Sequence record: SRR20825006_3074
Length of the DNA: 35,587 nt
Reading direction: 5' to 3' (one strand)
In this document: positions 4,119 through 26,642 of the stretch, one piece after another
Position numbering within the stretch: position 1 is the stretch's first letter
How the letters are laid out: the number at the start of each line of letters is the position of its first letter
Notes under the pieces: generated by a model
What the model was told of the DNA's origin: nothing
What the model saw: the letters and a program-made list of their open reading frames with translations, nothing else
The model's database searches: none
Position numbers and translations under genes: made by a program

Positions 4119-4193
4119 CAATACAAGCTTCCTAGCTCGAGCATGCCACTCGAATCGTGGCGGGTGTAGGACCCCAGCTTAAAGGGGAAAGTA

Positions 4194-5081
4194 TTAACCG
4201 CAATTATTCATGAAGATGAACAGAAACAACAAGAAGATCCCGATCCAGAAGATGACCGTCGCGCCGACAATCGCCGCGCGCGTTTTCGCGACCCCTTCGC
4301 CGAACTGTTGAGCGCTGGCCTCGGCCTGTGCTCTGGCGACGACCACGCGAGATTGCATCATCGACACGAGTTCTTGCAAGTGTGCGACGGCGCGCCTGTC
4401 TTCTGGATGTTCGGCGAGCCGAAAGCGAAGCAGGCGAATCCCCAGCTCGTAGAGCTTCTCCTCGCGCACGAAGGCGGCGAAGTTATCGAGCCGCTCCTCG
4501 CTCCATTGCTCGCTGACCGAGGCCCACAACAACATCGCTTGCTCGAACGCGGCCTCCTGCCCTTTCGGAGGACGCTCCCAGGGAGCGTCCCCTTCGGCGT
4601 AGCGATGAGACTCGGCGATATCGAGACCACAGCGGCGGCAATTGGTGTCCGAAGGATCGAGCAAATGCGCACATTTGCGGCAGCGCGCCCCCTCGCCCTG
4701 TTCCGGGATCAGACGCTCCATCATCTTCTCCGAGATCTCCTCGATGTAGGAGGCCTCGGACTGCCTGTTGCGCGCCTTCTCGGCGTTGGCGAAGGCGCGC
4801 GCGCGATCGATGTCGATCTCACCAGACTTCCTGAAGCCACCGACCGAGGCAGCCTCGGCTGGCGCCGCCGCGAGCGACGGCTCGGCTCGCTTTGGCCTTG
4901 CTTCAGCGGGCGACGCGGTCGAAGCAGATGCAGGTCGCGTGGACTCCTCACCTTGCGTCGCGCCGACGTCGAGAGGATTGGCGTGTCCGCAGTTTGCACA
5001 GATCAACTCGACACCGGAAGTGGTGGGTCGCACCTCAGCCGCGGGACCGATATGTTGGCAATTCTTGCAGCGGATATCCAA
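4194..5081 (-). CDS. Hypothetical protein with two zinc-ribbon motifs and a C-terminal transmembrane helix
   Basis: CKNC..CANC and CRKC..CRRC pairs, Ala/Pro/Glu-rich linker, hydrophobic tail IVGATVIFWIGIFLLFLFIFM. TTG start after GAGGAG. Confidence 0.75.
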   Translation of the reverse strand: MDIRCKNCQHIGPAAEVRPTTSGVELICANCGHANPLDVGATQGEESTRPASASTASPAEARPKRAEPSLAAAPAEAASVGGFRKSGEIDIDRARAFANAEKARNRQSEASYIEEISEKMMERLIPEQGEGARCRKCAHLLDPSDTNCRRCGLDIAESHRYAEGDAPWERPPKGQEAAFEQAMLLWASVSEQWSEERLDNFAAFVREEKLYELGIRLLRFRLAEHPEDRRAVAHLQELVSMMQSRVVVARAQAEASAQQFGEGVAKTRAAIVGATVIFWIGIFLLFLFIFMNNCG

Positions 5082-6284: not shown

Positions 6285-7565
6285 TCAGTCGACGAGCATC
6301 ACCGCGCCATCCACATCGAAGCGATAGAGCGAGAGCCCACGCGTCGGCGTCCCTCGCGCGTCGAAGGCCCAGTCTCCACAGACACCGCGCCATGGTCGCT
6401 TTGGCCCTGGCAAATCCGCGACGATCTTCGTCCGCACCGCGCGGATATCAGGCTTGCCCGTGAGCGACCAGTGCTTGCTCGCGGTGCGCGCGAGCAGTGA
6501 GATCGCGTCGAACACCTCGGCCTCGAGATCCACGGGGCGGCGGCCTGTGTTGCTCTCGAAGAGGAGCGCGAACTCCTCGGCGCGGCCGCCTGTGTTTTCT
6601 CCGCCATAAGGATCGAAGTAGAGCGCTCCCGCCGCGTGCGCCCTGGTCAGCCGCATCTGCTCGCCATGCCATCCAGGCATCCCCAACAGCTGCACGGCGA
6701 CGCCCTTCCCTCCCGCGCCAGATTGCATCCCCGCCGTCGAGAGCAGCGGCAGGATCTTCGAGACGCGCGTGTGGAAGTCGGGGATAAACAGCGCCTGGAA
6801 GTCGACCCCCTTGCCGCGCGCTGGCGCCCCTTTGAGCGAGACGTAGCCATCGCGGTCACCGCGCCGACCATCGACCTTGACGCCGCGTCCGACCCAGAGC
6901 TTTCGACCGACGAGCTCCTCGAGTGGTTTTCGAAAATCCTCGAGCTCGGGGCTGTAGCGCACCGCGGCGGCGATCTTCTTTTTTTGCTCGGTGAAGGTCT
7001 GAACAAACGCGAGCGCAGCCTGGTCGCCATAGTCATTGCCAGGGAACATCACCGCGGCGGTGTCGATCTCGAGCTTGGTGGCGGCTTCTCGGGCGATCAT
7101 CGCGCCGAGCTCTCCTGGAGAGAGCCTGAGGCGAAAGACCCAGTTGGAGACAAACTCGGTGCGTTCGACGCTCGCGAGCATGAGCAATGGGACAGCAGCG
7201 TGGCTCGCGCGCGCGGCGGCGGCTCTGGATGTCCGCGCGCCGAGCGGGCCGATAATGCCCACGAGCCTAGGGTCGCTGGCGAGCTTCGCGACCGCAGCGC
7301 TTGCCTTGCCTGGATCGCTGGCGGAGTCGACCACTTCGAGGTCGACGCGTGCATCCTTTGCCGCGAGCGTCGCCGCGTCGACGAGTTGCTCGCCGACCGC
7401 GCCGAGTTCACCCGAGAGCGGGACGAGCAACCCGATGAGAGGGAGCGTGCGTGTTGTATCGAGAGGTTGTGCGAACGCAGACCCGGGGCTCAACCCCAGC
7501 GCGGAGGCGCCGAGGAGCATGCGCGAGAGCAACGCGCGGCGGGTCAGGCGATCGTCGGAAAACAT
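6285..7565 (-). CDS. Periplasmic binding protein type 1 fold protein (LpoA C-domain / LivJ-like) with twin-arginine signal
   Basis: TRRALL followed by a hydrophobic stretch and AFA cleavage site; IGLLVPLSG, IIGPL, VFRL, NDYG, FQALFIPD, GVCGDWAFD. Start overlaps the dnaJ stop (TGATG). Confidence 0.8.
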   Translation of the reverse strand: MFSDDRLTRRALLSRMLLGASALGLSPGSAFAQPLDTTRTLPLIGLLVPLSGELGAVGEQLVDAATLAAKDARVDLEVVDSASDPGKASAAVAKLASDPRLVGIIGPLGARTSRAAAARASHAAVPLLMLASVERTEFVSNWVFRLRLSPGELGAMIAREAATKLEIDTAAVMFPGNDYGDQAALAFVQTFTEQKKKIAAAVRYSPELEDFRKPLEELVGRKLWVGRGVKVDGRRGDRDGYVSLKGAPARGKGVDFQALFIPDFHTRVSKILPLLSTAGMQSGAGGKGVAVQLLGMPGWHGEQMRLTRAHAAGALYFDPYGGENTGGRAEEFALLFESNTGRRPVDLEAEVFDAISLLARTASKHWSLTGKPDIRAVRTKIVADLPGPKRPWRGVCGDWAFDARGTPTRGLSLYRFDVDGAVMLVD

Positions 7566-8698
7566 CAGTCGAAGATGTCCTTGAGGCGCTGGAAGAAGGA
7601 GCGCTTCTCGGGGTGGACATCATCGCCGCTGAGTTCAGCGAACTGCACGAGCAGTTCGCGCTGCTCCTCATCGAGGTTGACGGGGGTCTCGATGACCACC
7701 TCGACGAGCTGATCGCCGCGAGAGGAACCTCCATCGAGGCCAGGGAAGCCCTTGCCACGCAGGCGGAAGATCTTTCCAGTCTGGGTTCCCGCGGGGATGT
7801 TCATCTTGACCTTACCATCGAGCGTGGGGACCTCGACCTTGCCGCCGAGCGCGGCCTGGGTGAAGCTGATCGGCACCACGCAGATGATGTTCTTGTTGTC
7901 GCGCTCGAAGAGCGTGTGATCCTCGAGGCGCACGACGATGTAGAGGTCTCCGGGAGGGCCTCCCTGCTCGCCAGGGGCGCCCTTGCCAACCCAACGGAGT
8001 TGTTGGCCATCGGAGATGCCCGCGGGGATGTCGATCTCGAGCATCTCCATCTCGCGCTGGTGCCCCTTTCCATCGCAAGTCTTGCAAGGATCGGTGATGA
8101 TGGTCCCATCGCCATCACATCTGGGGCAGGTGCGCTGCATGGTGAAGAAGCCCTGCTGCTGGCGCACGACGCCAGCGCCAGCACACATGGTGCAGGTCTG
8201 AGGCTTGGTGCCTTCCGCAGCGCCGGTGCCATCACAGGTCTCGCAGTCCTTGTAGGTCGGGACTTCGATCTCGCGCTTGGCGCCAGCGGCGACCTCCTGG
8301 AAGGTGACCTCGAGCTCCATCTGGAAGTTCGCGCCACGGCGTCCGCGACCTGCGCCGCCAAAACCACCGAAGCCACCGCCACCGCCGCCACCGAAGACGC
8401 TGTTGATCACGTCGAACAGGTCGCCAAAGCCACCCGCGCCGCCGCCAAAGCCTCCAGGACCGCCGGCGCCAAAGGGGTTGCCATTGGTCGATCCGAAGCG
8501 GTCGTAAGCCTGACGCTTTTCGGGGTCGCTCAGGACCTCATAGGCGGTGCTGATCTTTTTGAACTTCTCTTCGGCTTCAGGATTGTCAGGGTTGCGATCA
8601 GGGTGCCACTCCTTGGCCAATTTCCTGTATGCACTCTTGAGCTCTTGTGCAGAGGCGTCCTTGTTAACGCCCAGAACTTCGTACAAATCCGCTGCCAT
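7565..8698 (-). CDS. dnaJ: Class A DnaJ co-chaperone
   Basis: J domain with HPD, G/F-rich region, four CxxCxGxG repeats ([32 protein letters not shown]), C-terminal GDLYIV and [14 protein letters not shown]. Confidence 0.98.
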
Positions 8699-9039: not shown

Positions 9040-10893
9040 TTACTCTTCAGGAGCAGGCTCACCACCCTGGGGCTGGTCGCTCATCGAGGCGTACATGATC
9101 TCGGCGATCCTGTAGGCGGTGCTCTCGAGCGACGAGATGATGGTGGTCAACTCGTCGACGGTCGCGCCCTCGAGCAGTTCGTTGATGGTGGCGACATCTT
9201 GCGCCATCTCCTCGCGCTCTTGCGGCGGGAGCATATGACCGTAGTCATTGATGGAGCGCTCGGTCGAGTAGAGCAGGCCCATGGCCTGGTTGCGCTTCTC
9301 GGCGACCTGGGCCTGGAGCGCGTCCTGCTCTTCGTGCGCGGCGGCCTCTTCGACCATGCGCTCGATCTCGTTCTCGGAGAGGCCACCATCGGCGACCACG
9401 CGCACGGTTTGTTCGATCCCCGTGCCGATATCCTTTGCCGAGACGGACACGATGCCGTTCTCGTCGATGTTAAAGGTGACCTGAATCTCTGGGACGCCGC
9501 GAGGTGCTGGGGGGATACCGTGCATCTCGAACTTGGCGAGGCTCTTGTTCCCGGCGACCATCTGGCGCTCGCCCTGGAGGACGTGCACGCGCACCATCTG
9601 CTGGTTATCCCGAGCGGTGGTGAAGGTCTCCATATAGGAGCAAGGGATCGTGGTGTTGCGAGGAATCAATGGCGTGAAGACGCCACCGGCGGTCTCGATA
9701 CCGAGCGTGAGCGGCGTGACATCGAGGAGCAACACATCGGTGAGCTCGCCGCGGACGATGCTCGATTGCACCGCAGCGCCCATGGCCACGACCTCGTCGG
9801 GGTTGACGGAAGTGTCGGGCTCCTTCTCGAAGAAGGCGCTGACTTCACGGCGCACCATCGGGGTGCGCGTCATACCACCGACGAGCAAGACGACATCGAT
9901 CTCGGACTTGGCAAGGCCAGCGTCTTCGAGCGCCTTTTGACATGGCGTCATGGTGCGCTCGACGAGGTCCGTGATCATCTCCTCGTACTGATCGCGCGTG
10001 ATGGACGCCTCGAGGTGCTTTGGACCGGTGGCGTCAGCGTGAATGAAGGGGAGCGAGATGCTGGTGTCCTCGCGGCTCGAGAGCTCGCACTTGGCGCGCT
10101 CTGCCTCTTCCTTGAGGCGCTGGAGCGCCATCTTGTTCTCGCGCAGGTCGACGCCGTGCTCCTCGTTGAACTGGTCCGCGAGCATGTCGATGATGCGATA
10201 GTCGAAGTCCTCGCCACCAAGGAAGGTATCCCCCGAGGTCGAGAGGACGCTGAAGACGCCATCGGCGAGCTCGAGGATGGACACATCGAAGGTGCCGCCG
10301 CCGAGATCGTATACGGCCACGCGGTGTTGCCCCGAGGTATCGGCCATGCCGAGGCCGTAGGCGAGCGCAGCGGCGGTGGGCTCGTTGACGATGCGCAGGA
10401 CATTGAGGCCGGCGATACGCCCGGCGTCCTTGGTGGCCTGGCGCTGTGCGTCGTTGAAGTAGGCGGGGACCGTGATCACGACGTCGGTGACTTCTTCACC
10501 GAGGTAATCCTCGGCCTGCCCCTTGAGCTCGCGCAGGATGAAAGAGGACACCTCGCTCGGCGAGTAGTCCTTGCCGCGAAGGTGCACCCAGGCGTCCCCT
10601 TTGGGGGAGCCCACGACCTTGAAAGGAGAGGATTCGATGACGCGCTTGACGTCTTCTTCTTCAAAACGCCTGCCGATCAAACGCTTGACCGCGTAGACGG
10701 TGTTCTCGGCGTTGGTCTCGCCCTGACGCTTCGCGAGGTGGCCGACGAGGCGCTGGCCATTCTCGGTCAGCGCGACGACCGAAGGGGTCGTGCGCGCGCC
10801 TTCGGAGTTGGGGATCACGACCCGTTCATCGCCATCGATAAAACAGACGCAAGAGTTGGTCGTACCCAGGTCGATTCCGATTGTTTTGCCCAT
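9040..10893 (-). CDS. dnaK: Hsp70 chaperone DnaK
   Basis: [61 protein letters not shown], linker [20 protein letters not shown]; 617 aa. Confidence 0.98.
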
Positions 10894-10988: not shown

Positions 10989-12041
10989 TCAAGCCTGTGC
11001 CTGGCTCGTCTCTCCGCCAAGGCCAGCGTCGACACTGGGCTCCTCGAAAGATGCGTCGTCCTGCTCGGTCGCGGCGTCCTCTTCGGGGGCTGGCGCATCC
11101 TCTTTAGGCGCAGACTCTGGCGTCGCCTCGGGCTCGACCTCGGCCTCTGGCTCGGGCTCGACCTCCGCGGGGGGAGGATCGATGCGCTTCGCCACGACGG
11201 TGAGCGCGGGACGCAGGAGCCTGTCATGGATGAAGTAGCCCTTCTGGAACTCCTGCATCACGACGTTGGTGTCGAACTCGGTCGTCTCGATCTGCTGGAT
11301 CGCCTCGTGGCGTTGTGGATCAAACTTCTCACCGACAGACTCGAAGCTCTGGATGCCGTGCTTCTCGAGCGAGCTGATGAGTTGGCGATGCACCATGCGC
11401 ACGCCGTCCGAGATCGAGGACTCCTCGGCAGTCTTCTCCGCGTGCTCGAGCGCGCGCTCGAGGTTGTCGACGGCGGGCAAAAGATCGGAGACGATCTTGT
11501 CCGAGCCGTACTTGCGGAGCTCTTCCTTCTCGCGCTCCTTGCGCTTGCGGAAGTTATCCATATCCGCAGCGCTCCTGAGCAAGCGCGCCTTGAGGTCATC
11601 GCGCTCGCGCTGGAGGCCGGTGATCTCTTCATCGTTCGCGCTCACGCGCTCCTCGAGCTCCGCGAGGCGGCGCTCGAGTTCTTCGATGCGCTCGTCCTTG
11701 GCGTCCTTGACAGGAGGCGCATCGAGCACCTCGATCACAGGCTTCGAGCCAGTCGCCTCGAAGACCTCGCCTTCGTCATCCTCGGGGCTCAAGAAGAGTG
11801 GATCCTCTTCCTCAGGCTCGGTGTTGACGGAGTCGTCGGTCTCGATCTCTGGCTCTTCATCTGCCGAGTCGGACTCTTCCGAATCCTCGTCGCCATCAGG
11901 GGTAGCCTCGGCGTCCACTTCAGGAGCCTCGACCTCTTCCTCGCTCCCGCTTTCTTCAGCGGGCTGCTCGACTTCTTCGGGATTGTTCACCACCTCCTCG
12001 GATGGCGTCTCCTCCTGAACCGCGTCTTCGTTCTGACTCAA
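10989..12041 (-). CDS. grpE: Nucleotide exchange factor GrpE with long acidic N- and C-terminal extensions
   Basis: LLRSAADMDNFRKR, DLLPAVDNLERAL, GEKFDPQRHEAI, QKGYFIHDRLLRPALTVV. TTG start at 12041 follows GAGGAG, preferred over 12206. Confidence 0.95.
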   Translation of the reverse strand: MSQNEDAVQEETPSEEVVNNPEEVEQPAEESGSEEEVEAPEVDAEATPDGDEDSEESDSADEEPEIETDDSVNTEPEEEDPLFLSPEDDEGEVFEATGSKPVIEVLDAPPVKDAKDERIEELERRLAELEERVSANDEEITGLQRERDDLKARLLRSAADMDNFRKRKEREKEELRKYGSDKIVSDLLPAVDNLERALEHAEKTAEESSISDGVRMVHRQLISSLEKHGIQSFESVGEKFDPQRHEAIQQIETTEFDTNVVMQEFQKGYFIHDRLLRPALTVVAKRIDPPPAEVEPEPEAEVEPEATPESAPKEDAPAPEEDAATEQDDASFEEPSVDAGLGGETSQAQA

Positions 12042-12122
12042 TGTCTCCTCCAAACAGAGCTCGGGTGATGCCTGTGTGGGCAAAATCGCCACGTCGCGGC
12101 ATCTCTCATGGGTGAAGAGGGC

Positions 12123-12150
12123 AAAAGGGGTGTATTTCTCGCATTTCACG
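12123..12150 (-). promoter_or_regulatory. Possible sigma32-like promoter upstream of grpE
   Basis: Minus strand reads CGTGAAA-N13-CCCCTTTT versus consensus CTTGAAA-N13..17-CCCCATNT. Weak match in an AT-richer intergenic patch. Confidence 0.25.
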
Positions 12151-12281
12151 AGATAGAGGAATATCTCGACACCACTGATTTGCCTTACTTCATCTCGACG
12201 CCACAAACCTAGCGCGCTTGTCTATCTCTGGCAAGACGCAAGAAGGGCGCGTTCTGCGGCCATCTATCAGCCTGCCATGCG

Positions 12282-13325
12282 TCACTTATTCTGGTTCCCA
12301 AGGTAGCTCGAGAGCGCCAGCGCGGTCTGGTGAATCAGCGGCAAGATGCGCTCGTAGTCCACGCGAGATGGACCGATCACGCCGAGCAATCCGCTCGCTT
12401 CATCCTGCTGTCCGTAACCACAGACGATCAAGCTGACCTCATCGCCAAGTCCGAGCCCGAGATCGAGCTCCGGACCGAGCAACACCGTGGGGCGCTGCCC
12501 CTCGTCGAAACCATCGAGCAGCTCGAGGACCTGTTCCTTCTCCTCGAGGAGCTCGAGGAGATGTTTTAAACGCTCGGTGTCGGCGGTCAACTCATCGTAG
12601 TCGAAGACGTTGAACTTTCCCTCGACGACGACCTTGGGTTGCGTCGATTCGATGGCGCGCGCGCCGATCTCGAGCGCGAGCCGCACGAGCTCGTTTGCCT
12701 GGCGCGCCAGGACGAGCATCTCCCGGCGAACCTTCGTGCGCACCTCCTCGAGCGTCAACCCCAGGGCGAGCTCGGAGAGGTAGTCCTGGATGCGCTTTAA
12801 CTGCGTGCGGTCGAGCTCCTGATTCATCGGGACGACCTGGTGGTAGACCCGCGCGTCACTCGCGACGAGGATGGCGAGGATGCGCCGCTCGGAGAGCGGC
12901 GAGAGGTGGATGTCTTCGAGTCGGATCGAGCCGAGGCTCGGGGTCGAGACGATGCTCGTCAGGCGCACCAGATCACTGAGCAGGCTGCCGACGGTATGCG
13001 CGGCCTGCTCCATGTCCTTCCCCTCCATCGCGCCGAGCTCGCCCTGGATATGCACCAGCGCAGGATCGCCGATGGGGAGCCCCTCGACCGAGAGCGCGTC
13101 GATAAACAGGCGCAGCCCGCCTGGCGTGGGGACGCGCCCTGCCGATGTGTGCGGTTGACGCAGGAGCCCCTGCGCCTCGAGATCTCCCATCACATTGCGG
13201 ATCGTCGCGGAGCTGACATCGACCACGCCGCTGCGAGCGATGTGCGAGCTGCTCACAGGCTCACCGTTCGAGACGTAGCTGCGGATGACCTGAAATAAGA
13301 CCGACTGTTGCCTGGCGTTAAGCAT
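12282..13325 (-). CDS. hrcA: Heat-inducible transcription repressor HrcA
   Basis: GEPVSS, SSATIRNVMGDLE, QPHTSAGRVPT, LGVIGPSRVDY; located upstream of grpE-dnaK-dnaJ. Confidence 0.96.
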   Translation of the reverse strand: MLNARQQSVLFQVIRSYVSNGEPVSSSHIARSGVVDVSSATIRNVMGDLEAQGLLRQPHTSAGRVPTPGGLRLFIDALSVEGLPIGDPALVHIQGELGAMEGKDMEQAAHTVGSLLSDLVRLTSIVSTPSLGSIRLEDIHLSPLSERRILAILVASDARVYHQVVPMNQELDRTQLKRIQDYLSELALGLTLEEVRTKVRREMLVLARQANELVRLALEIGARAIESTQPKVVVEGKFNVFDYDELTADTERLKHLLELLEEKEQVLELLDGFDEGQRPTVLLGPELDLGLGLGDEVSLIVCGYGQQDEASGLLGVIGPSRVDYERILPLIHQTALALSSYLGNQNK

Positions 13326-13463
13326 CGCTTCTTTTCTCGACCTCGCTCGAGTCTTGTCACAAGCACGAACTCACTCGAGGAGGGAGCCCTGCTCCCATCC
13401 TCTTCGGATCGCTCATGAATCTACCAACCTGCACCGGCTCAAGGCAAGCGAGCACGCGCGCGC

Positions 13464-14495
13464 TCATTCTGCCTGCGCGGCGGCCTGCTCGGAGAGTCGG
13501 ATGAGGTTGCGGCTCTCGGGATCAAACCACATCACCAGGACGCCTGGCGTGACGATGACGACAAATTGCAGCACGTGCACCGTGGCCGCCAGCGCGGCGA
13601 CCTGCGCGCCAAAGACCTCGAGCACCACGAAGAGCCCGAGCGCGCGGGAGAAGAAGAACTCGAAGTTGCCCGCCATCGCTGGCCCCGCCGGGATCATGAT
13701 CCCGATCACGAGCAAGGCAAGCACCGTGGCCATATCCCAGAGGCTGACGTCGAGGCCAAAACCATACCGCGCGAGCAACCACATCGAGACGACGTTGCTC
13801 CCCCAGTAGAGCGCCGTCAGCGCCAGAAAACGCCCCAGCGAGCGCGCCTCGATGAGCGCGCGGAAGCCGTCGATGAAACCTTCGAGGAGCCCTGATAATT
13901 TCTCGGCCAACCCCTTGGAGATAAAACCGAAGACCTTCTCGACCATGCCGATGGTCCACGACTTGCTCCAGAGCGCGAGCAGGCAGGTCACCAGCGCGCC
14001 GATAAAGATCCCGGCGCTCAACGCGCCGGTGGTGTACGCGAACGTCGTGCTCTGCTCACCCGAGTACGTCGCCAACGTGACAAAGAGCAGGCCAGTGATA
14101 ATGAGCCCGTCGATGACGCGCTCGACGACCGCCGTGCCGAGCACGGCGCTCATCGAAAACGGCGTTCGCCTCGAGAGCAGGTATGGCCGCACCAGCTCGC
14201 CAAGGCGCAAGGGGAGCAACAAAATCGCCGTGAACCCCACCACGCAGACGCGGTGGACGAGCTTGCCGTCGACCTCTCCGAGCGGGCGCACCAGATCATA
14301 CCATCGCACGATCCTCGCGCCATGGCAGATGATATAGACCGCCACATAGATCGCGCCCCACGTGAGCAAGTGCGTGGTGTCCGCTTGCTCGAAGTAAGCC
14401 TCGAGCTGGTCTGTAGGCAATCCGCTCCAGGCCAGATAGAGGAAGAAGGCGCCGATGAGGTTGGCGATCAGGAAGGAGACAATAAAGCGGGTCAC
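13464..14495 (-). CDS. Flippase-like membrane protein (LPG_synthase_TM / UPF0104 family)
   Basis: About 8 TM helices; RIVRW, LLPLRLGELVRPYLL, VVERVID, IPAGPAMAGNFE motifs. GTG start overlaps the upstream TAG stop. Confidence 0.88.
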   Translation of the reverse strand: MTRFIVSFLIANLIGAFFLYLAWSGLPTDQLEAYFEQADTTHLLTWGAIYVAVYIICHGARIVRWYDLVRPLGEVDGKLVHRVCVVGFTAILLLPLRLGELVRPYLLSRRTPFSMSAVLGTAVVERVIDGLIITGLLFVTLATYSGEQSTTFAYTTGALSAGIFIGALVTCLLALWSKSWTIGMVEKVFGFISKGLAEKLSGLLEGFIDGFRALIEARSLGRFLALTALYWGSNVVSMWLLARYGFGLDVSLWDMATVLALLVIGIMIPAGPAMAGNFEFFFSRALGLFVVLEVFGAQVAALAATVHVLQFVVIVTPGVLVMWFDPESRNLIRLSEQAAAQAE

Positions 14496-16249
14496 TATTC
14501 ACCGAGTTCGCGCGAGATCTTGTCGCGGAGCGAGTCGAGCTCGCGATCCTCTTCCATCTTGCGGAAGCGACGCTCGACCTCGGAGAGGCGCGATCCGCCG
14601 CCAGCGCCACCGCCAGCACCCGAAGGTCCTCGGCCACCGCCGCCGGCGGCCTCCTTGAGCTTGGCCTTCTGGCGGCGCACATCCTGGAGCTCCTGCTGGA
14701 GCGGCTCGGCCTCGCGCAGGTAACCTCGAAGGATCCCTTCAGCCTCCTCGGCCAGATCCTCTTCATTCCATTCGCGCGCCAGATCGAGCCGGTTTCGCCA
14801 ACGCTGCTGCTCCTTGCCGAGCTCGCCGAGCCTGCGATCGAGCTCGCGCTCGGCGAGGATAAGCTGCGCGAGCTGCTCCTTTGCCTCGGCCTTGGAGATG
14901 CCGACAAACTCGTTGGCGTCGCGACCGCCACCGCCACCAGAACCAGAACCTCCGGTGCTTCCGCCAGATGAAGAGCTCGACCCCGAGGAGTCCGAGGAGG
15001 AGCTACCGCCACCGCGCGAGCCTCCGATCGACTCGAACGGGCCACCAAAGCCCTTGCGCTCGTTGTTTCCGCCACCCTGATCAGAGCCAGCGTCGCCGCC
15101 CTGCTCTTCCTCGCCGCCGCCCGGGTTGTTCACCTGGCGCCACTCGGGGGCATGAATCAATGCTCTTGCCATCGCCTCGGCGACCTCTTTCGAGCCACCT
15201 GGCAAGCCGATGCTGCCAGCGGCCTCGGCGTAACGCGCGAGGTTATCCTCGAGCAGGAAGCGCTCGATCTCGGCGCCGAGGCGGATCATATCCGAGACGT
15301 GGCGCCCGAGCTCGTGTCGCTCGAAGAAGGCCGCCTGAGCGCTCGCGTCACCGGCGTCTCCGACCATCATCACCGGCAAGCCGAGCGCGCTGATCTCGGG
15401 GATCATCGGATCGCTGGCGGTGGTGATGACCATATCGCCGACGGCGAGGTAGCGCTCGAGTTGATCGACTCGCCCGAACATCACGGCGTCGAAGCCGTGA
15501 TCATTGGCCGCGCGGCGCAAGGTCGCCGCGGCGCTGTTATCACCGTTGTGGTGGAACAGGAAGCGCACGTTGCCTTCGACGAGCTTTGCCTGGAACATCA
15601 TCTTCTCGAGCGAAGCGACGTCGAAGTTCTCAGCGCGCGCGATGACGAGTTTCTCCGAGTGAGAGAAGCCGAACTCATCGCGGAGCGCGCCCTTGTCGAG
15701 CTCTCTGGCGAAGCCAGGCTGCACCGCCGGACCGGCCACGAGCACGCGATCGGCGGGGACCTGAGCGCGCGCGAAGCGATCCGCGAGCTCCTCGTGCGGG
15801 ACGATAAAGGCGTGCAGGCCGCTCTTGAGCCAGGCGTCATGGAGGTTGAAGTCCGGCATGACGCCGACCTGCAGGGCAGGAATTCCGGTCAGCCCTTCGA
15901 GCACCGAGAGCGCGCGGACGTGGCGCGGATTGGTCACGGCGAGCAGGTCTGGCTTGACGCGACGGACGGCGCCGATGAGATCCTCGTCGGAGTGTCCCTG
16001 GACGGCGACGCGGAGACCGCGAAGCAAGCGCTCCGCGCTACCGGCGAGCGCGCCTCTGGCCATCGTCCCGATCACCTCGGAGATGGTCACGATCTCGGCG
16101 CGGGCGCCGCGCTCCTGAAGATGTCCCGCCACCGAAGCGAAGGCCTCGGCGCGCGCGGAGTGATCCACGAGAATCCAGACGAGTGAATCTTCTGGAATCG
16201 GTCCAAGCTCTTCGCGTTGCTCTTGCTGCTCGGTCTGCTCCTCGCTCAC
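14495..16249 (-). CDS. GT-B glycosyltransferase of MGDG-synthase/UgtP type fused through a Gly/Ser linker to a PspA/IM30-like coiled coil
   Basis: N-terminal part: KPDLLAVTNP, VMPDFNLHDAW, RVLVAGPAVQPGF, LRDEFG, FGRVDQLERYLAVGDMVIT, EISALGLPV. C-terminal part: WRNRLDLAREWNEEDLAEEA and ELDSLRDKI. GTG start at 16249 follows GGGAG, preferred over 16501. Confidence 0.8.
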   Translation of the reverse strand: MSEEQTEQQEQREELGPIPEDSLVWILVDHSARAEAFASVAGHLQERGARAEIVTISEVIGTMARGALAGSAERLLRGLRVAVQGHSDEDLIGAVRRVKPDLLAVTNPRHVRALSVLEGLTGIPALQVGVMPDFNLHDAWLKSGLHAFIVPHEELADRFARAQVPADRVLVAGPAVQPGFARELDKGALRDEFGFSHSEKLVIARAENFDVASLEKMMFQAKLVEGNVRFLFHHNGDNSAAATLRRAANDHGFDAVMFGRVDQLERYLAVGDMVITTASDPMIPEISALGLPVMMVGDAGDASAQAAFFERHELGRHVSDMIRLGAEIERFLLEDNLARYAEAAGSIGLPGGSKEVAEAMARALIHAPEWRQVNNPGGGEEEQGGDAGSDQGGGNNERKGFGGPFESIGGSRGGGSSSSDSSGSSSSSGGSTGGSGSGGGGGRDANEFVGISKAEAKEQLAQLILAERELDRRLGELGKEQQRWRNRLDLAREWNEEDLAEEAEGILRGYLREAEPLQQELQDVRRQKAKLKEAAGGGGRGPSGAGGGAGGGSRLSEVERRFRKMEEDRELDSLRDKISRELGE

Positions 16250-16605
16250 ATTCGACTCCCGGGCTTGGGGGCAAAAGAAGGTTGCCCTGTTAAAGCGGTC
16301 GACGCGCTCGCCCTCATGCTCTGACCGCCGACCTGCCGCCCGAACCTGTAGAAAAGGGGGGGCACAGGACTGTCGAGTATTCGGGGAATGCGTGCGCGCG
16401 ACCCTGGGTAAAAAAGATGGCCTGGAGCAATGCCCCAAAAAGAAACCTCTCGCGTTCAGGAGATCCTCGCCCCGTACACGTACACGAACAAAAGGGAGCA
16501 AGGATCGCCCAGGGTTGCCATCCGATGCCTTGTTGTACCAAGAGTGGATGGTTCACCCAAGAGAGAAGCGCAAGGATCTCTGGACAGAGAAGGCGCGGGG
16601 AGGGC

Positions 16606-16980
16606 TCAGTATTCGTAGAAGTTGTCGAGGAATTCCGCGATCTGGCTGACATCCATCGACTTGCAGAAATAGCCGTTGATGTCGTTCTCGATGCAAAACT
16701 CCTGGAGCTGCTCGGCCTCCTCGTCGCTAAACAGGACGATGACGAGGTCCTCGTAGTCCGGGGAGGCGCGCAATGTCTCGAGGAGTTCGGGGACATTGAG
16801 GCGAGGCATGTTCAAATCGAGGAGCAAGATCTCGGGGTTCTCATACTCGATCTTGGAGAGCGCGCCGTTTGGCGAAGAGAGAGTGACCACACCGTAGCCA
16901 CCTTCCTTGAGGTATCCCTCGGCCTCCATAACATCGAGGATGTTATCATCCAGGATCATCACCTTTCGGATCGCATCCAT
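16606..16980 (-). CDS. Single-domain (CheY-like) response regulator
   Basis: VMILDDN acidic pocket, LLLDLNMP phosphoacceptor Asp, LFSD, FCKS lysine; no output domain. ATG at 16980 follows AGGAG. Confidence 0.9.
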   Translation of the reverse strand: MDAIRKVMILDDNILDVMEAEGYLKEGGYGVVTLSSPNGALSKIEYENPEILLLDLNMPRLNVPELLETLRASPDYEDLVIVLFSDEEAEQLQEFCIENDINGYFCKSMDVSQIAEFLDNFYEY

Positions 16981-17265
16981 CAAACTGCTCCTGCTCGCGA
17001 AATCTTCAGACGTCCTGGCATCCAAACACCAGAGACCGTCGCGCTGCCACACTTCATATACAAGCCGACGCGGCACTCTTGAAGAAGATTCTTCGAGCAC
17101 TGCGCGTTCATGACTACAGATGAAGAGGTTTTGATCACCCTAAAATCAGGATAAACCTCGAAAAGTCAGCGGTCAATCGCCACGAACACTCCCCCACCGG
17201 GCTCTGACCGACACACGCTGACGTGATCCACATCGCCATGAAAGTGGCCGCCTGTCAAAAAACTC

Positions 17266-17655: not shown

Positions 17656-18396
17656 ATGATGGGTTGGATTCTTGCTGGTCTGGTATTTCTGGTGGCCGCC
17701 ATCGCGTTGTCTCAACAGCGCGCGAGCCACTCGAAGACCGTGCAATCCCTGCGCGAGATCAACGCGCGAAAGCTCGAGGAGCAGCAAACCGAAGCGTCTC
17801 ACAAGATCGAGGAGCTCGAGAAACGACTCGGGAGGCTCAAGCGAGAACAGGAGACGACCGCCGCGCGCGCGCACCTGCCGCTGGCAAAGGAGCTCCTCTC
17901 GGGGCTCGATGACCTGGAGCGCGCCATCGAGCTCGCGAGACAAAAGGAAGAAGGCGCCGAGCAGCAGGATCTGACAAAGGGGCTCGAGATGGTCTCGACG
18001 AGCTTCCATAAGGCGCTCGCCAGGCATGGCATCACGCCGATTTCGCCCGAGAAGTCGACCGAGTTCGACCCCGCCATCCATGAGGCCATCACGGTCACCG
18101 AGGACGCCGAGCTGCCTCACAACTCCGTCCATCAACTCCTTCGCACAGGCTGGCAACACGACACCCAGCTGCTCCGTCCGGCGATGGTCCAGATCAGCCA
18201 GCAGCCTGTCCACGAGGACTCCTTCGAGAAGACCATGCCCGAGATTCCCTCGAGCAAATCTCAGGAGGTCACCTTCTCTTTCGAGCAAGTCGAAGAGGAA
18301 GAGGCGGCGGCGAGCGCAGCATCGGATGATGTGGAGACCTCAGAAGAATCAGAGGAAGTGAAAGAGGTCGTCGAAGAGGTCGTCGAGCGAGGTTAG
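17656..18396 (+). CDS. Second GrpE-family protein with an N-terminal transmembrane helix or signal anchor
   Basis: ELLSGLDDLERAI, KGLEMV, EFDPAIHEAI, RTGWQHDTQLLRPAMVQI match the GrpE core; N-terminus MMGWILAGLVFLVAAIALS; acidic tail. Confidence 0.88.
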   Translation: MMGWILAGLVFLVAAIALSQQRASHSKTVQSLREINARKLEEQQTEASHKIEELEKRLGRLKREQETTAARAHLPLAKELLSGLDDLERAIELARQKEEGAEQQDLTKGLEMVSTSFHKALARHGITPISPEKSTEFDPAIHEAITVTEDAELPHNSVHQLLRTGWQHDTQLLRPAMVQISQQPVHEDSFEKTMPEIPSSKSQEVTFSFEQVEEEEAAASAASDDVETSEESEEVKEVVEEVVERG

Positions 18397-23990: not shown

Positions 23991-24254
23991 CGCAGGCGCT
24001 TCTCCGGGGAATTCGAGCCTCGAGGCCGCATGCGACGCACCTATCAGCGTCAGTCCATGGAGCCAGGCGGCGGTTATCACAGGGAGCGAGCCTATCACGC
24101 GAGGCAGATACGGGCCAACCGATCGCGCGCAGTGGGCGATGTGATACTTGCGCCAGAGGGAACTTCGCGGATAGCGTTGCGCACGATCTCGTATGGAGGT
24201 TTTGCGCGGGCGCCTGCTCGATATCCATGCTCAACCAAAGAATTTCGGGTCGGG

Positions 24255-26642
24255 ATGCCTGGAGCACACACACAACTCGAAGCGATACATATCGCCGGGA
24301 AGCTCTCGCTGTGCCAACTGTGGCGCGAGCGACTCTTGCTCCTGCTGCTCTCGTGTGGACTCTTCCTGACGGCCATCACCACGGTCGGGTGCGCGAGGTT
24401 TCGCGAGGAAGAGAAGAAAGAGAACAAGGCGCCGACGTATGTCCCCCCAGGTCAGACCGATCGCCGCATCGTCGAGCTCCGCTTCAAGGGCGTCGAGCAG
24501 ATCGATGAGCAGGCGCTAAGGGATGGCCTCTCGAACCAGGCAGATCCCGGCTGGAGAGCGTCCGACAGAATCCGCAAGGTCCCCGTCCTCGGCGCAGAGC
24601 CACGCTACTACAACAAGCTCGCATGGGAGCGCGATCAGGAGCGCATCCTGGCGTATTACAGGTCGCAGGGCTTTTTCGACGCCACGGTCTCATCTCGCGA
24701 ATCGAAGAGCGAGGACCCCTACGGCATGATCCTCGTCGTCACGGTCAACGAGGGCGAGCCGACGCGCGTCTCCAACGTGATCATCGAGGGGCTGGAGTCG
24801 ACCAAGCTCGACGTGAGAGAGATCCGAGGAGATTTGCCGCTCAAGGAAGGCAACATCTTCACGCAAAGTGGCTACCTCGAGGCCAAGGCGACCGTGGAGC
24901 GCGAGCTCAAGTCGCGCTCGTATGCCTACGCGCAGGTCAAGGGGCGCGTGGTCGTGGACCCCAAGAAGCGCACCGCCGAGATCTCGATCCTTGCCGACCC
25001 TGGCCCGAAGACCGTCTTTGGAGAGGTAGAGATCCAGGGGCTCGCGCGCGTCGATGAAGAGTACGTGCGCGACGCGGTCGCCATCCGAAAAGGAGAGCTC
25101 TACTCGAGCGAGGATATCCAGGAGACTCAGGAGAACATCTACGACCTCGGGGTCTTTAGCCTCGTGACGGTGCAGCCCGAGTTCGAGTACGGCCAACAGA
25201 GCGATGAGCGGCAGACAGGAAGGCGCAAGGGCCAGCTCGAAGAGGGTGAGGTCGGCGCGCTGGGGATCTCGGAGATGCTCGCCCAAGCTCAGGAGAACGC
25301 CGCGCAGCGCTCTGCGCTGCCGACCGAGGTCAAGATCGTGATCAAGGTCAAGGAGGCAAAGAACTGGAGCGTGAGGCCCGGCGCCGGTTTCTCCATCAAC
25401 TCCAACCGCCAGGACATACACGGCGCGGTCAACCTCCAGAGCCGTAACTTCTTCGGGACGCTCGGCAAACTCGAGCAATTCAACACGTTAGGCTACGCGC
25501 TCACGCCGGGGATCTTCTCGCTCAACGCGACCGCCGAGGATGGCATCTCGATCGATGACTTCGGCTATCGCGGGGTTTATTTCAATACGCAGCTTCGCTA
25601 CTCGCAGCCGCAACTGATCGGCCGCAAGACCACGGGCTTCCTCTTTATCAACGTCGAGCGCGACATCCAGGAGGCCTACATCGGCCTCATCCCATCGGCA
25701 TCGATCGGTCTTCGGCGACCGCTGTTCACGCGAAAGCTGACCGGCGAGGTCTCCTACAACGTGCTCTATATCCTGTACCAGGCGTTCGACGAGCAATACG
25801 GGGCGGAGTTGCTCGCGCAGGGGCTCGATCCGAACACGCGCAACCCCTCGCTGCTGCTCGAGTATCTGGAGCAAAAGATCATCTACGATGGTCGCGACAA
25901 CCCGCTCAACCCGACCAAGGGCCTGCGCGCGCAGATCTCGATGCAAGAGGCCAGGCGCTATATCGTTGGCGGCGAGTACGCGTTCTTGAAGCCGAGGATC
26001 CAGTTCGATGGATACATCCCGCTCGGCAAGAACTACGTGACGGCGCTTCGCGCTGGTGGGGGGTCGATCTACAACCTGAACGAGCCGCAAGGGGACGCCA
26101 CGCGAGGCATCCCGCTCCAGAGCAGGTTGTACGCTGGCGGCAAGGGTTCGATCAGGAGCTTCGGGCCGCGCTACTTCGGGTTCTTCACCGATGATCTCGT
26201 CAACCCGGCGCCGATCGGCTCGATCTCCCTTATAGAAACAGGCGTCGAGCAGCGCATGCGCCTGAGGCGCAACCTGCTCGATGTCGGCGACCTCTGGGGC
26301 GCGCTTTATCTGGACTCGGGGACGTTCTTCGAGCAGCAGCTCTTCTTCGACACGGAGGCCAACTCGACGGGGTCGGTGAGTGTGGATGATATTCGCGGCA
26401 CGTTTATCCACGGCGTCGGGCTCGGCGCGTTCTGGCTCACGCCTATCGGGCCTGTGCGCGCGGACTTTGCCTACACGCTCAACAACATCCGCCGTGACTT
26501 CCGCTACACCGCTGATCCGACCGTGGTCGATGATCCAGACACGCCGCGCAACGAGCTCTACACCGAGTATCAATACGCCGCCGCGGTCAGGAACAAGCTG
26601 CGCCGCTTCGACTTCTACCTCGGCATCGGGCACTCGTTCTGA
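24255..26642 (+). CDS. tamA: Omp85-family outer membrane protein, TamA/TamL-like (3 POTRA domains + beta-barrel)
   Basis: YYRSQGFFDA, VNEGEPTRV, GPKTVFGEV POTRA motifs; YDGRDNPLNPTKG, LYAGG, TPIGPVRADFAY, terminal IGHSF; adjacent to tamB; possible lipobox TVGC. Start uncertain. Confidence 0.87.
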   Translation: MPGAHTQLEAIHIAGKLSLCQLWRERLLLLLLSCGLFLTAITTVGCARFREEEKKENKAPTYVPPGQTDRRIVELRFKGVEQIDEQALRDGLSNQADPGWRASDRIRKVPVLGAEPRYYNKLAWERDQERILAYYRSQGFFDATVSSRESKSEDPYGMILVVTVNEGEPTRVSNVIIEGLESTKLDVREIRGDLPLKEGNIFTQSGYLEAKATVERELKSRSYAYAQVKGRVVVDPKKRTAEISILADPGPKTVFGEVEIQGLARVDEEYVRDAVAIRKGELYSSEDIQETQENIYDLGVFSLVTVQPEFEYGQQSDERQTGRRKGQLEEGEVGALGISEMLAQAQENAAQRSALPTEVKIVIKVKEAKNWSVRPGAGFSINSNRQDIHGAVNLQSRNFFGTLGKLEQFNTLGYALTPGIFSLNATAEDGISIDDFGYRGVYFNTQLRYSQPQLIGRKTTGFLFINVERDIQEAYIGLIPSASIGLRRPLFTRKLTGEVSYNVLYILYQAFDEQYGAELLAQGLDPNTRNPSLLLEYLEQKIIYDGRDNPLNPTKGLRAQISMQEARRYIVGGEYAFLKPRIQFDGYIPLGKNYVTALRAGGGSIYNLNEPQGDATRGIPLQSRLYAGGKGSIRSFGPRYFGFFTDDLVNPAPIGSISLIETGVEQRMRLRRNLLDVGDLWGALYLDSGTFFEQQLFFDTEANSTGSVSVDDIRGTFIHGVGLGAFWLTPIGPVRADFAYTLNNIRRDFRYTADPTVVDDPDTPRNELYTEYQYAAAVRNKLRRFDFYLGIGHSF

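Follow-up and report, generated by a model that had tools for sequence, protein, structure and literature searches.

A conserved Bradymonadales protein joining a glycosyltransferase-like GT-B domain to a truncated PspA/Vipp1 module suggests that lipid handling may be tied to PspA membrane repair

Can a lipid-synthase-like domain and parts of the membrane-repair protein PspA be joined in one polypeptide, and what might the PspA part do there? The question is raised by a gene on the minus strand of a 35,587-nucleotide stretch of DNA (record SRR20825006_3074, here called the window), which an initial annotation had described as a glycolipid-synthase-like glycosyltransferase fused to a truncated PspA/Vipp1 module. 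The product is a conserved three-part chain of the Bradymonadales, consisting of a cytoplasmic GT-B domain of GT28 lipid-glycosyltransferase descent, a linker with an invariant F-E-x-I-G motif and a mini-PspA, and the fusion suggests that lipid handling and the repair of membranes by PspA may be directly linked.

Gene and protein organization

The coordinates and strand given in the annotation were right: 14495–16249 (minus strand) translates as a single stop-free gene of 584 aa. It starts with GTG at 16249, preceded by GGGAG 8 nt upstream; the frame can formally be extended to a TTG at 16501, and alignments with homologues begin only at residue ~2–24. The TAG stop (14497–14495) shares 1 nt with the GTG at which the next gene begins (TAGTG). 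All the segments that had been quoted were found again, namely the glycosyltransferase (GT)-like part, a Gly/Ser linker of 72 aa, the hairpin, a second Gly linker and the terminal helix. The features of the locus are as follows.

14495..16249, minus strand: fusion gene, 584 aa (GT28-like domain, linker and mini-PspA module)
15134..16186, minus strand: GT-B fold domain, MGDG-synthase/UgtP/MurG-like, residues 22–372, with non-canonical catalytic and donor motifs
14909..15124, minus strand: disordered Gly/Ser-rich linker, residues 376–447 (pLDDT <50)
15023..15037, minus strand: F-E-S-I-G motif within the linker, residues 405–409 (column conservation)
14645..14893, minus strand: helical hairpin, residues 453–535, by homology the tip-proximal half of PspA/Vipp1 alpha1-alpha2
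14594..14644, minus strand: second Gly-rich linker, residues 536–552 (low pLDDT; gap in hhalign)
14504..14593, minus strand: terminal helix SRLSEVERRFRKMEEDRELDSLRDKISREL, residues 553–582, PspA alpha5-like (helix in the AF2 model)
13464..14495, minus strand: gene for a PplT / LPG_synthase_TM (UPF0104) flippase-like membrane protein (PF03706, E 1.4e-28, 100.7 bits; TIGR00374)
16606..17100, minus strand: upstream gene for a receiver-only response regulator (PF00072, E 3.8e-13)
12282–13325, minus strand: hrcA (Pfam)
10989–12206, minus strand: grpE (Pfam)
9040–10893, minus strand: dnaK (Pfam)
7565–8698, minus strand: dnaJ (Pfam)

Genomic context

The fusion gene is translationally coupled to the gene for the PplT/LPG_synthase_TM flippase-like protein. 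This partner lies directly downstream (at most 300 bp) in 33 of the 35 informative loci; at one locus it is 3 kb off, and in the remaining one no such gene was found downstream. A response regulator gene stands upstream on the same strand in 28/31 informative loci, and in 22 of 32 the flippase-like gene is followed directly by hrcA. The usual setting thus has a receiver-only response regulator on one side and hrcA-grpE-dnaK on the other. No CIRCE operator was found within three mismatches in the whole window, and upstream of the fusion gene there are weak terminator-like sites; heat-shock co-regulation is thus suggested by gene order alone.

The glycosyltransferase-like domain

The annotation had expected matches to MGDG_synth, Glyco_tran_28_C and PspA_IM30. 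The first was obtained above threshold (PF06925, E 9.4e-8; 32.8 bits, the cut-off being 25), spanning only profile positions 78–169 of 169; the second (PF04101) was not detected in the window protein by the Pfam search at E≤1, and the third appeared in register and below threshold, as described further on. NF010135 (UgtP) matched with an E-value of 1.5e-16, yet far under its own cut-off. In a profile search of the PDB, UgtP (9wde) was best by sequence (2e-15), MurG and MGD1 also being matched. The AF2 model has pLDDT >90 across residues 22–372, and its best Foldseek matches by fold are the MGD1 entries 4wyi/4x1t (E ~1e-13 to 3.5e-14, TM 0.75–0.77), with MurG 3s2u at TM 0.69. The domain therefore has the two-Rossmann GT-B fold of the GT28 enzymes by both AF2 and Foldseek, and shares it with MGD1, UgtP/YpfP and MurG of CAZy family GT28.

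The active-site motifs are another matter. A distant fusion, P0148, keeps the canonical GT28 motifs GSGH-RR, TKPGG and PGQEERNA together with a significant MGDG_synth match and Glyco_tran_28_C at 2.1e-6, whereas the family of the window protein aligns DHSAR, T-T-A-S-D-P and A-G-D-A-S-A-Q-A-A-F with those sites, an alignment at 20–25% identity that may be a few residues off. Column counts over 94 sequences agree that the catalytic-His G-loop, KPGG and PGQE..NA have been replaced. His155 of the G-loop is described as the catalytic base of MGD1 (PMC7419546); at or beside this position no His is conserved among the 94 sequences, H30, the only one nearby, being present in 69/94 (R33 in 87/94), and there is no Gly loop. 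KPGG has become a variable A/S-P-x-D/E-P, and of PGQE..NA only Q305 is left (71/94). Retained from the GT28 enzymes are the W of the N-domain 'H-x-x-W' motif and the donor-ribose-site Glu (E285, ribose-binding-type, 86/94). E73, R74, R77, R112, R205, H233, D237 and R245 are invariant (94/94); R205 and an invariant F-H-H-N-G-D motif set the family apart from GT28, as does the C-terminal mini-PspA tail, which is new in it.

Since the canonical catalytic and donor motifs are replaced, glycolipid synthesis is doubtful and a role as lipid synthase uncertain. Of the proposed "lipid-binding or glycolipid-making domain" the GT28-like fold has held up, and the glycolipid-making part has been weakened, both by these replacements and by the undetected Glyco_tran_28_C. 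We give close to an even chance to the reading that the domain is a pseudo-glycosyltransferase, that is, a lipid- or nucleotide-binding regulator or scaffold of the PplT flippase-like protein, which the mini-PspA tail localises. The motifs lost relative to P0148, the want of a conserved His at the MGD1 His155 position and the missing PF04101 match all favour it. It sits less well with the strong constraint on the eight invariant residues and with the persistence of E285 and Q305; that a flippase-like gene is so tightly coupled to it agrees with an active enzyme of lipid modification, as in gpgSDF, and the possible offset of a few residues in the motif alignment also counts against it.

The C-terminal module

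Both PF04012 (Pfam) and TIGR02977 (NCBIfam) align residues 454–534, without gaps and below threshold, with profile positions ~40–120 (E 0.0044 and 0.002, respectively), which bears out the gap-free hairpin alignment that had been made by eye. The PF04012 score is 17.1 bits for the full protein and 20.0 for the C-terminal piece, under the gathering threshold of 33.9 bits. A profile built from 35 C-terminal pieces had eight Vipp1/PspA chains as its top eight matches in the PDB (best E 2.2e-4); the full-length family profile retrieved no PspA/Vipp1 chain at E≤1. The register agrees across methods (Pfam 40–120, TIGR02977 42–120, Vipp1 43–121, hhalign 38–112). AF2 predicts helices at 453–493 and 497–535 (pLDDT 94–98); nine of the top ten Foldseek matches of the module model are Vipp1/PspA, and the model superimposes on E. 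coli PspA(1–144) (4whe) with an rmsd of 0.8 A over 83 columns. In structure comparison, helical hairpins of unrelated proteins score equal to those of ESCRT-III proteins.

The sequence similarity goes beyond chance and beyond that of a generic coiled coil, and makes the hairpin a homologue of PspA/Vipp1 alpha1-alpha2 in its tip-proximal half. The hairpin tip motif of PspA is present for this half alone, and the module shares the tip signature W-x3-[AL]-x2-A ... [DE]-[DE]-L-A-x-E-A with PspA/Vipp1 (IM30) of the bacterial ESCRT-III superfamily. In hhalign the module covers PspA columns 37–116 and 212–245 of 264, coordinates that confirm the annotation's view that the N-terminal amphipathic helix and the middle helices are missing. 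Thus alpha0, the amphipathic membrane-binding helix, is absent, all matches starting at PspA ~37–43 after the disordered linker, and the distal alpha2/alpha3 and alpha4 with their hinges are absent too (columns ~117–211 unmatched). Compared with PspA/Vipp1, the module comprises ~115 of ~220 residues, lacks in addition the first ~15 residues of alpha1, and sits behind an enzyme-like domain of 370 aa.

At the level of sequence, the terminal helix matches PspA alpha5. It carries R-F-x-x-M-E (alpha5N-type) followed by L-x-x-L-[KR] (alpha5C-type), and the invariant F562-x-x-M565-E566 aligns with the F-x-x-L-E motif of PspA. The terminal segment alone gave an hhalign match of 83% (E 8.9e-6, score 33.5) to columns 212–245, against 13.7 for the reversed control and at most 20.2 for block shuffles, and this match is co-linear with that of the hairpin. 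The spacer inside the module's alpha5 is four residues shorter than in PspA/Vipp1. The identities that had been proposed for both domains are supported, a GT28/MGDG-synthase-like GT-B domain and a truncated PspA/Vipp1 consisting of hairpin and terminal helix.

In the Vipp1 structural work of PMC8281802, alpha5 of Vipp1/PspA (alpha5N F-x-x-L-E, alpha5C L-x-x-L-K) is described as binding hairpin tips, and mutation of F197/L200 of the N. punctiforme protein, which lie in F-x-x-L-E, as severely inhibiting self-assembly. alpha5C contacts subunit j+3 at its hairpin tip, and rings and filaments are abolished without alpha5/6. Judged by its motifs, then, the module appears to have kept exactly the two PspA pieces that make the hairpin-tip/alpha5 interfaces in Vipp1 polymers.

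Possible role of the module

The same design also occurs without an enzyme. Stand-alone mini-PspAs of ~140–180 aa (P0159, P0162, P0187, P0199 and P0210 among the examples) are found in other lineages, one of them in a Spirochaetia MAG, and show full-length homology to the fusion module (hhalign 99.5%, E 1.6e-22); eight of the ten examined match PF04012 below threshold over profile positions 40–~122. Like the fusion module they consist of a short hairpin and a terminal L-x-x-L-K helix, but no enzyme is fused to them and an extra conserved V-D-x-E-x-L-L lies between the two elements. Two canonical PspA paralogues were present in all five related genomes examined, the module matching the diverged one at 85.7% and the main one at 43.1%; there is no PspA gene within the window.

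The best explanation, which we hold with some confidence, is that of a conserved GT-like/mini-PspA protein coupled to a flippase-like partner, the module serving for docking or assembly where the membrane is stressed or marked by PspA. Because the module keeps only two complementary elements it is most likely a device for this purpose and not a membrane-remodelling subunit; with alpha0 and most of the lateral hairpin-packing surface missing, it cannot take the place of a regular subunit in the polymer. We infer from the retained motifs that it would dock on PspA polymers or self-associate through the hairpin-tip/alpha5 contact. The alpha5-like helix of the fusion would plug onto hairpin tips of the cell's PspA paralogues while its own tip would accept their alpha5; alternatively, fusion molecules might make the same contact with one another or internally. 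In both cases the GT-like domain would accumulate, together with the flippase-like partner, where the membrane is stressed or carries PspA, and there the two would work in the manner of MprF or GpgSDF, as a "lipid synthase/binder + flippase" unit.

It is possible, though on the improbable side, that the module never contacts PspA and is a self-contained device. The alpha5-like helix would then fold onto its own hairpin tip, giving a closed, autoinhibited protein like the ESCRT-III monomers, or would swap onto a second fusion molecule's hairpin, so that the GT-like domain is clustered or activated at the membrane. Both complementary elements do lie within one chain, with a flexible 17-residue Gly linker between them; in ESCRT-III the alpha5/hairpin contact keeps the monomer closed as well as serving the polymer; and the existence of stand-alone proteins of ~150 aa with the same design in other lineages suggests an autonomous unit. 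Against this, the tip has kept its PspA-like residues (W, L-A, A), and F-x-x-[LM]-E and L-x-x-L-K persist in alpha5, which is more than a private contact would require; in addition, the five related genomes examined all keep two PspA paralogues.

The docking reading has a more specific form, tentative and rather unlikely as it stands, in which the mini-PspA is a dedicated PspA-polymer adaptor (an "Interface-1 cassette") recruiting the GT28-derived domain and the PplT flippase to damaged membrane. The cassette would plug into hairpin tips and alpha5 helices that lie exposed on the outside of PspA coats. If this were true, PspA-mediated repair would here go beyond coating and involve targeted lipid supply or flipping; the stand-alone mini-PspAs would use the same contact as free caps or regulators; and the fusion would, like a Rosetta stone, connect PspA/Vipp1 with MGDG-synthase-type enzymes, a connection that reviews of thylakoid biogenesis raise only as a possibility.

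Relation to described systems

The annotation knew of no described fusion of this type, and our literature search likewise found no paper describing a GT28-like/mini-PspA fusion. Its parts do have parallels. Operons and fusions of a glycosyltransferase with a UPF0104 flippase are reported for gpgSDF and for PplT-GT fusions (PMC12713373; bioRxiv 10.1101/2022.03.11.483950), the PF03706-type protein being presented there as the flippase, proven or predicted, of the lipid that its partner makes. As in MprF, the GpgS-GpgD-GpgF unit of P. aeruginosa and the GT-PplT fusions so described, a cytoplasmic GT-type gene is coupled to PF03706 at the window locus; unlike GpgS, a GT4 enzyme, the domain here is GT28-like, is without canonical motifs and carries a PspA-derived tail, and a deacetylase gene is absent.

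Ravi et al. (mSystems 2024; PMC11237479) describe a rare PspA_IM30-NlpC/P60 fusion (<2% of homologues), predicted there to change membrane composition, which is similar in that a PspA sequence is fused to a lipid-active enzyme domain. It differs in the enzyme family and in that the PspA part of the window protein is heavily truncated. The terms 'glycosyl' and 'MGDG' are absent from the main text of PMC11237479; with its PspA part truncated and below the Pfam threshold, the GT28-like/mini-PspA fusion would be missed by a domain-architecture survey.

Specificity of the match to PspA

The annotation would have been undone by a C-terminal region scoring only as a generic coiled coil, its resemblance to PspA being due to chance. 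This we regard as very improbable. It could draw on the sub-threshold PF04012 score, on the equal structural scores of unrelated hairpins and on weak matches to other coiled-coil families, of which FapA, the next in line, was matched by 12 of 35 C-terminal pieces from relatives. PF04012, however, was matched by 31 of these 35 at E≤0.1 (best 4.6e-7). Aligned with nine Bradymonadales PspAs by hhalign, the module reached 93.6% (E 2.2e-7, score 51.0), against 17.2 and 18.1 for reversed controls, at most 19.6 for 30 column shuffles and at most 25.9 for 30 heptad-block shuffles. A search of 1.84e9 representatives recovered, in register and at E ~4e-4, the proteins P0235 and P0240, which are PspAs of canonical length. 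The common register of independent sequence methods and the second, co-linear match of the terminal helix to alpha5 likewise speak against chance.

Occurrence and integrity of the fusion

A survey of homologues found the fusion in related genomes, where its absence would have told against the annotation. Among 97 database homologues, 93 cover at least 96% of the query, and 42 loci were collected from genomes of Bradymonadales, Lujinxingia, Persicimonas and Microvenator, one of them that of the isolate L. vulgaris TMQ2; the fusion ORF is unbroken in 35 or more genomes. Across the phylum, the module is present in 24 of 201 sampled genomes, mostly inside frames of 526–645 aa. That assembly or gene calling has falsely joined two neighbouring genes, an idea whose sole support is that low-complexity Gly/Ser linkers can mask frameshifts, is rejected as next to impossible, since the frame is uninterrupted in the window and free of internal stops in 36 full-length loci, among them a complete chromosome (L007) and an isolate genome (L020), and since the module is C-terminal in 70 fusion-length representatives.

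The first linker (72 aa) differs in both length and sequence between homologues, and F405, E406, I408 and G409 within it are identical in 94/94 sequences. The second linker, of 17 residues, occupies the place of the PspA distal alpha2/alpha3 and alpha4, the hhalign gap over columns ~117–211 falling there. All the distant fusions that were aligned carry the motif of the first linker as [F/L/Y]-[E/Q]-x-[I/V/L]-G, with two copies in P0149 and P0182.

The fusion gene and its predicted structure

The fusion gene (14495–16249, minus strand) is, on translation, a single open frame of 584 codons. It starts with a GTG at 16249, preceded by GGGAG, and ends with a TAG at 14497–14495, the last base of which is also the first of the next gene's GTG start. 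A longer frame reaching back to a TTG at 16501 is unsupported because homologues align from residue ~2–24 onwards only. The window coordinates of all parts of the protein were confirmed by translation, and every segment quoted in the initial annotation was found in its place. An AlphaFold2 model based on 94 homologues (mean pLDDT 83.3, pTM 0.73) resolved the following parts.

Parts of the fusion protein in the AlphaFold2 model
Residues 22–372: GT-B domain of two Rossmann folds, pLDDT >90
Residues 376–447: disordered stretch
Residues 453–493 and 497–535: the two long helices of the hairpin, pLDDT 94–98
Between the hairpin and the last helix: short disordered Gly stretch
Residues 553–582: last helix, pLDDT 69–88

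Within the otherwise variable disordered linker lies the motif F-E-S-I-G (residues 405–409; 15023–15037, minus strand), the F, E, I and G of which are identical in 94/94 homologues. Every distant fusion aligned possesses the form [F/L/Y]-[E/Q]-x-[I/V/L]-G, and the database proteins P0149 and P0182 have two copies each. The motif resembles a short linear docking motif.

Conservation of the fusion

Database searching revealed 97 homologues, 93 of which cover at least 96% of the query; named records are from Bradymonadaceae, Lujinxingia and Persicimonas. Species-representative genomes yielded 42 fusion loci, among them one on a complete chromosome and one in the isolate L. vulgaris TMQ2, and no internal stops were found in 36 fusion loci. 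Among 201 sampled genomes of the phylum, 24 had a match to the module at E≤1e-8, nearly all in frames of 526–645 aa. More distant fusions (P0148, P0149, P0166, P0182, P0194 and P0098) are likewise composed of a GT-like domain, [F/L/Y]-E-x-[I/L/V]-G, a hairpin and a terminal helix. The fusion described in the initial annotation is genuine and conserved.

The C-terminal module

The window protein alone gave weak, in-register evidence of PspA: PF04012 (E 0.0044; residues 454–534 to profile positions 40–120) in Pfam, and TIGR02977 (E 0.002; residues 455–533 to 42–120) in NCBIfam. A profile of the full-length family alignment (A1, 94 sequences) matched GT28 enzymes only in the PDB, with no PspA/Vipp1 chain at E≤1, and a C-terminal-only profile (A2) was therefore needed. 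It was made from the C-terminal ~140 residues of the window protein and 34 related loci, cut by DNA reference. In a Pfam scan of these 35 pieces, which stood in for all 94 members of A1, 31 matched PF04012 at E≤0.1, with a best value of 4.6e-7; FapA came second (12/35). The eight best PDB chains for A2 were all Vipp1/PspA (best 8qhx, E 2.2e-4), and profile positions 12–92 align to Vipp1 43–121 without a gap. When A2 was compared by hhalign with nine PspAs of related genomes (A3), the probability was 93.6% (E 2.2e-7, score 51.0); reversed alignments scored 17.2 and 18.1, 30 column shuffles at most 19.6 and 30 heptad-block shuffles at most 25.9. Against 1.84 billion representatives A2 matched 156 proteins at E≤1e-3, and the PspA-length, in-register matches were P0235 (260 aa, 39–119) and P0240 (227 aa, 41–136), both with a library-wide E of ~4e-4.

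Foldseek with a model of the module only returned nothing at E≤1e-3, so the case for homology rests on sequence rather than on fold; 9 of its 10 best matches were Vipp1/PspA, and E. coli PspA(1–144) superposed on the module model at 0.8 A over 83 columns. PspA ancestry followed by truncation, as the initial annotation had proposed for this region, is very probably correct.

Under permissive hhalign settings the PspA match runs on co-linearly into the terminal helix, where E-x-R-F-r-k-M-E ... D-L-x-x-L-K-d-R-I lines up, across one 4-residue deletion, with L-x-x-x-F-x-x-L-E ... d-d-L-a-x-L-K-x-k-m at the C-terminus of PspA. The terminal segment alone matched PspA at 83% (E 8.9e-6, score 33.5), the reversed control scoring 13.7 and shuffled controls at most 20.2. 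The module covers positions ~37–116 and ~212–245 of the 264-column alignment. The amphipathic helix alpha0, which binds membrane, is absent, as are the beginning of alpha1, distal alpha2/alpha3 and alpha4, in agreement with the N-terminal amphipathic and middle helices having been noted as missing from the start. The module is best described as a PspA-derived partial domain that falls below the Pfam PF04012 threshold and differs from PspA/IM30 (PF04012) in lacking three of that family's structural elements. Those residues that make up the tip signature (W484, A491, L499, A500, A503) and the alpha5 motif (F562, M565, E566, L571, L574) are invariant or nearly so.

The hairpin-tip/alpha5 contacts are described by Liu et al. 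2021 (PMC8281802) and in a review of 2025 (PMC7619361): in Vipp1, Interface 3 binds alpha5N to the hairpin tip one rung down, rings and filaments are abolished when alpha5/6 is deleted, and self-assembly is severely inhibited by F197K/L200K in the F-x-x-L-E motif. Since the hairpin tip and alpha5 are retained and the other helices are missing, the module keeps two complementary interface halves and little else.

The N-terminal domain

The initial annotation had anticipated MGDG_synth and Glyco_tran_28_C matches in the N-terminal half; the former was found in Pfam (E 9.4e-8, second half of the model only), and Glyco_tran_28_C gave no match in the window's fusion protein. The NCBIfam UgtP model matched at E 1.5e-16, its score of 60 bits being well under the cut-off of 500. 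PDB matches of the A1 profile included UgtP (9wde, 2e-15), MurG (3s2u, 1.7e-6) and MGD1 (4wyi, 5.2e-6), and MGD1 ranked first in Foldseek (E 3.5e-14, TM 0.75–0.77). On the strength of these sequence and structure matches the domain is GT28 by fold and ancestry.

Its catalytic apparatus, judged from aligned residues, is non-canonical and does not preserve the GT28 catalytic motifs. P0148, a distant member of the fusion family with significant matches to both MGDG_synth (2.2e-24) and Glyco_tran_28_C (2.1e-6), keeps G-S-G-H-R-R, T-K-P-G-G and P-G-Q-E-E-R-N-A; opposite these the window protein has D-H-S-A-R, T-T-A-S-D-P and A-G-D-A-S-A-Q-A-A-F, in an alignment of 20–25% identity in which misplacement by a few residues is possible. 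In MGD1 the catalytic base is His155 of the G-loop (PMC7419546). In 87 of the 94 family members an Arg occupies the position aligned with that His, and the sole nearby His (H30) is present in 69/94. The Gly loops are lost across the 94-member family, and only Q305 (71/94) is left of the last donor motif. E73, R74, R77, R112, R205, F232, H233, D237 and R245 are identical in 94/94, and E285 in 86/94, and this invariance of polar and other residues counts against simple decay. With motifs lost on one side and residues invariant on the other, the domain may therefore be, at roughly even odds, an enzyme whose chemistry has changed or a pseudo-enzyme that binds a ligand, and the prospects of its retaining glycosyltransferase activity appear evenly balanced.

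Gene neighbourhood

The product of the next gene belongs to PF03706 (LPG_synthase_TM / PplT / UPF0104; E 1.4e-28). This flippase-like gene lies within 300 bp downstream of the fusion gene in 33 of 35 informative loci; in one it is 3 kb off and in one none was found downstream. A receiver-only response regulator is encoded upstream in 28/31 loci, and hrcA follows the flippase-like gene in 22/32. In the window the gene order continues from hrcA with grpE, dnaK and dnaJ. This position ahead of a heat-shock operon is compatible with a stress role, and proves nothing. The HrcA operator, CIRCE, has the consensus TTAGCACTC-N9-GAGTGCTAA; at up to three mismatches it was absent from the whole 35.6-kb window, including the regions upstream of hrcA, grpE and dnaK, and the intergenic regions held no convincing inverted repeat. 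Other features of the window are as follows.

Further genes of the window
10989–12206 (minus): GrpE gene of the hrcA-grpE-dnaK row; its longest frame adds ~170 acidic aa at the N-terminus
12282–13463: stretch containing hrcA, with no CIRCE operator found
17656–18396 (plus): second, divergently oriented GrpE gene (246 aa, N-terminal hydrophobic segment), upstream of the response regulator, its synteny kept in most related loci
24030–26642: Omp85/POTRA (BamA-like) gene
26821–32889 (plus): very large ORF (2022 aa) downstream of the Omp85/POTRA gene

PspA paralogues and possible function

No PspA gene lies within the window, and candidate partners were drawn from related genomes. All five searched (5/5) contain two canonical PspA paralogues, scoring ~190 and ~60 bits and situated 5–10 kb apart. 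The module is closer to the diverged paralogue (85.7%) than to the main PspA (43.1%). The diverged Bradymonadales paralogue (loci L049–L052; 257–299 aa, ~60 bits; main pspA at L043 and L045–L047) has its alpha3 and alpha4 separated by a long insert rich in Pro, Ser and Arg, and its C-terminus, L-E-x-R-F-x-x-L-E ... D-D-L-A-D-L-K-x-K-F, is nearer to the terminal helix of the fusion than is that of the main PspA.

The module probably acts as a docking or assembly device by way of the hairpin-tip/alpha5 contact. It could dock on the cell's PspA polymers; in the Vipp1 rings described in PMC8281802, hairpin tips and alpha5 lie at the spike tips, on the outer side. Such physical docking is a tentative proposal, falling a little short of an even chance. 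The contact might instead be made between fusion molecules, or, in a closed state, inside a single molecule; in eukaryotic ESCRT-III the alpha5/hairpin contact also locks the closed monomer (PMC8281802, PMC7619361). Self-contact independent of PspA is the less probable of these readings and, on balance, unlikely. The mini-PspA tail would place at the stressed membrane a "lipid enzyme/binder + flippase" unit formed by the PplT protein together with the GT-like domain, a kind of unit with precedents in MprF, GpgSDF and GT-PplT fusions.

To our knowledge, PspA/Vipp1 has very few known direct partners apart from the Psp and Lia regulators. The fusion may be regarded as a natural experiment in which PspA has been stripped to the elements that form the conserved hairpin-tip/alpha5 contacts and joined to a lipid-enzyme-like domain operonic with a flippase-like protein. 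It would offer a minimal interaction cassette for PspA/ESCRT-III-type assembly, and may physically connect lipid metabolism or flipping with membrane repair. This candidate link uses the MGDG synthase family, which is named beside Vipp1 in thylakoid-biogenesis reviews, and galactolipid reviews say no more of IM30/VIPP1 than that it might partner the MGD1-MGDG platform (PMC5809773). According to the main text of the large PSP survey by Ravi et al. (PMC11237479), >98% of PspA homologues are single-domain; the fusions named there are with NlpC/P60, with PspAA and in tandem. The terms "glycosyl" and "MGDG" are absent from that main text, to which the supplements could add a GT fusion. Full-text literature searches found no description of a GT28-like/mini-PspA fusion. 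Experiments are feasible because cultured relatives exist, with records for Lujinxingia vulgaris and L. litoralis.

Stand-alone mini-PspA proteins

Among the 150 best representatives, 70 were of fusion length, 52 were apparently complete stand-alone proteins of 114–241 aa spanning the whole module, 7 were short and without an M start, and 21 had other forms, mostly N-terminally cut fusions together with the two PspAs. Some of the top-scoring short representatives may be fragments of fusions; the lower-scoring group of ~145–160 aa is a separate family. By hhalign the stand-alone group matched the module at 99.5% (E 1.6e-22) and PspA at 95.6%, and 8 of 10 stand-alone proteins tested matched PF04012 below threshold. 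These proteins, which include P0159, P0162, P0185, P0187, P0196, P0199 and P0210, consist of a short hairpin and a terminal L-x-x-L-K helix, with V-D-x-E-x-L-L between them; one comes from a Spirochaetia MAG, and a few carry the PspA name from their source records. Truncated, sub-threshold PspA modules, both fused and stand-alone, are missed by Pfam-based censuses. In a search for loci related to P0159, the sole match was an irrelevant coiled coil inside a large 631-aa ORF.

A second mini type, of 180–255 aa, is encoded at L054 3985–4752 (+), L055 4004–4546 (+) and L056 ~3930–4362 (+), and is also represented by P0173, P0186 and P0188. Its N-terminus, M-x-x-I-x-H-A-E-M-A-L-L-I-R-R-E-K-E, opens directly at the hairpin (..H-A-E-M-A-L-L-I-R-R-E-K-E..W..R..L-A...G.D-E-L-A), after which come R-R-P-S-G-x-E-V and an acidic tail. 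The genomes in which it occurs belong to the same phylum and bear the fusion too.
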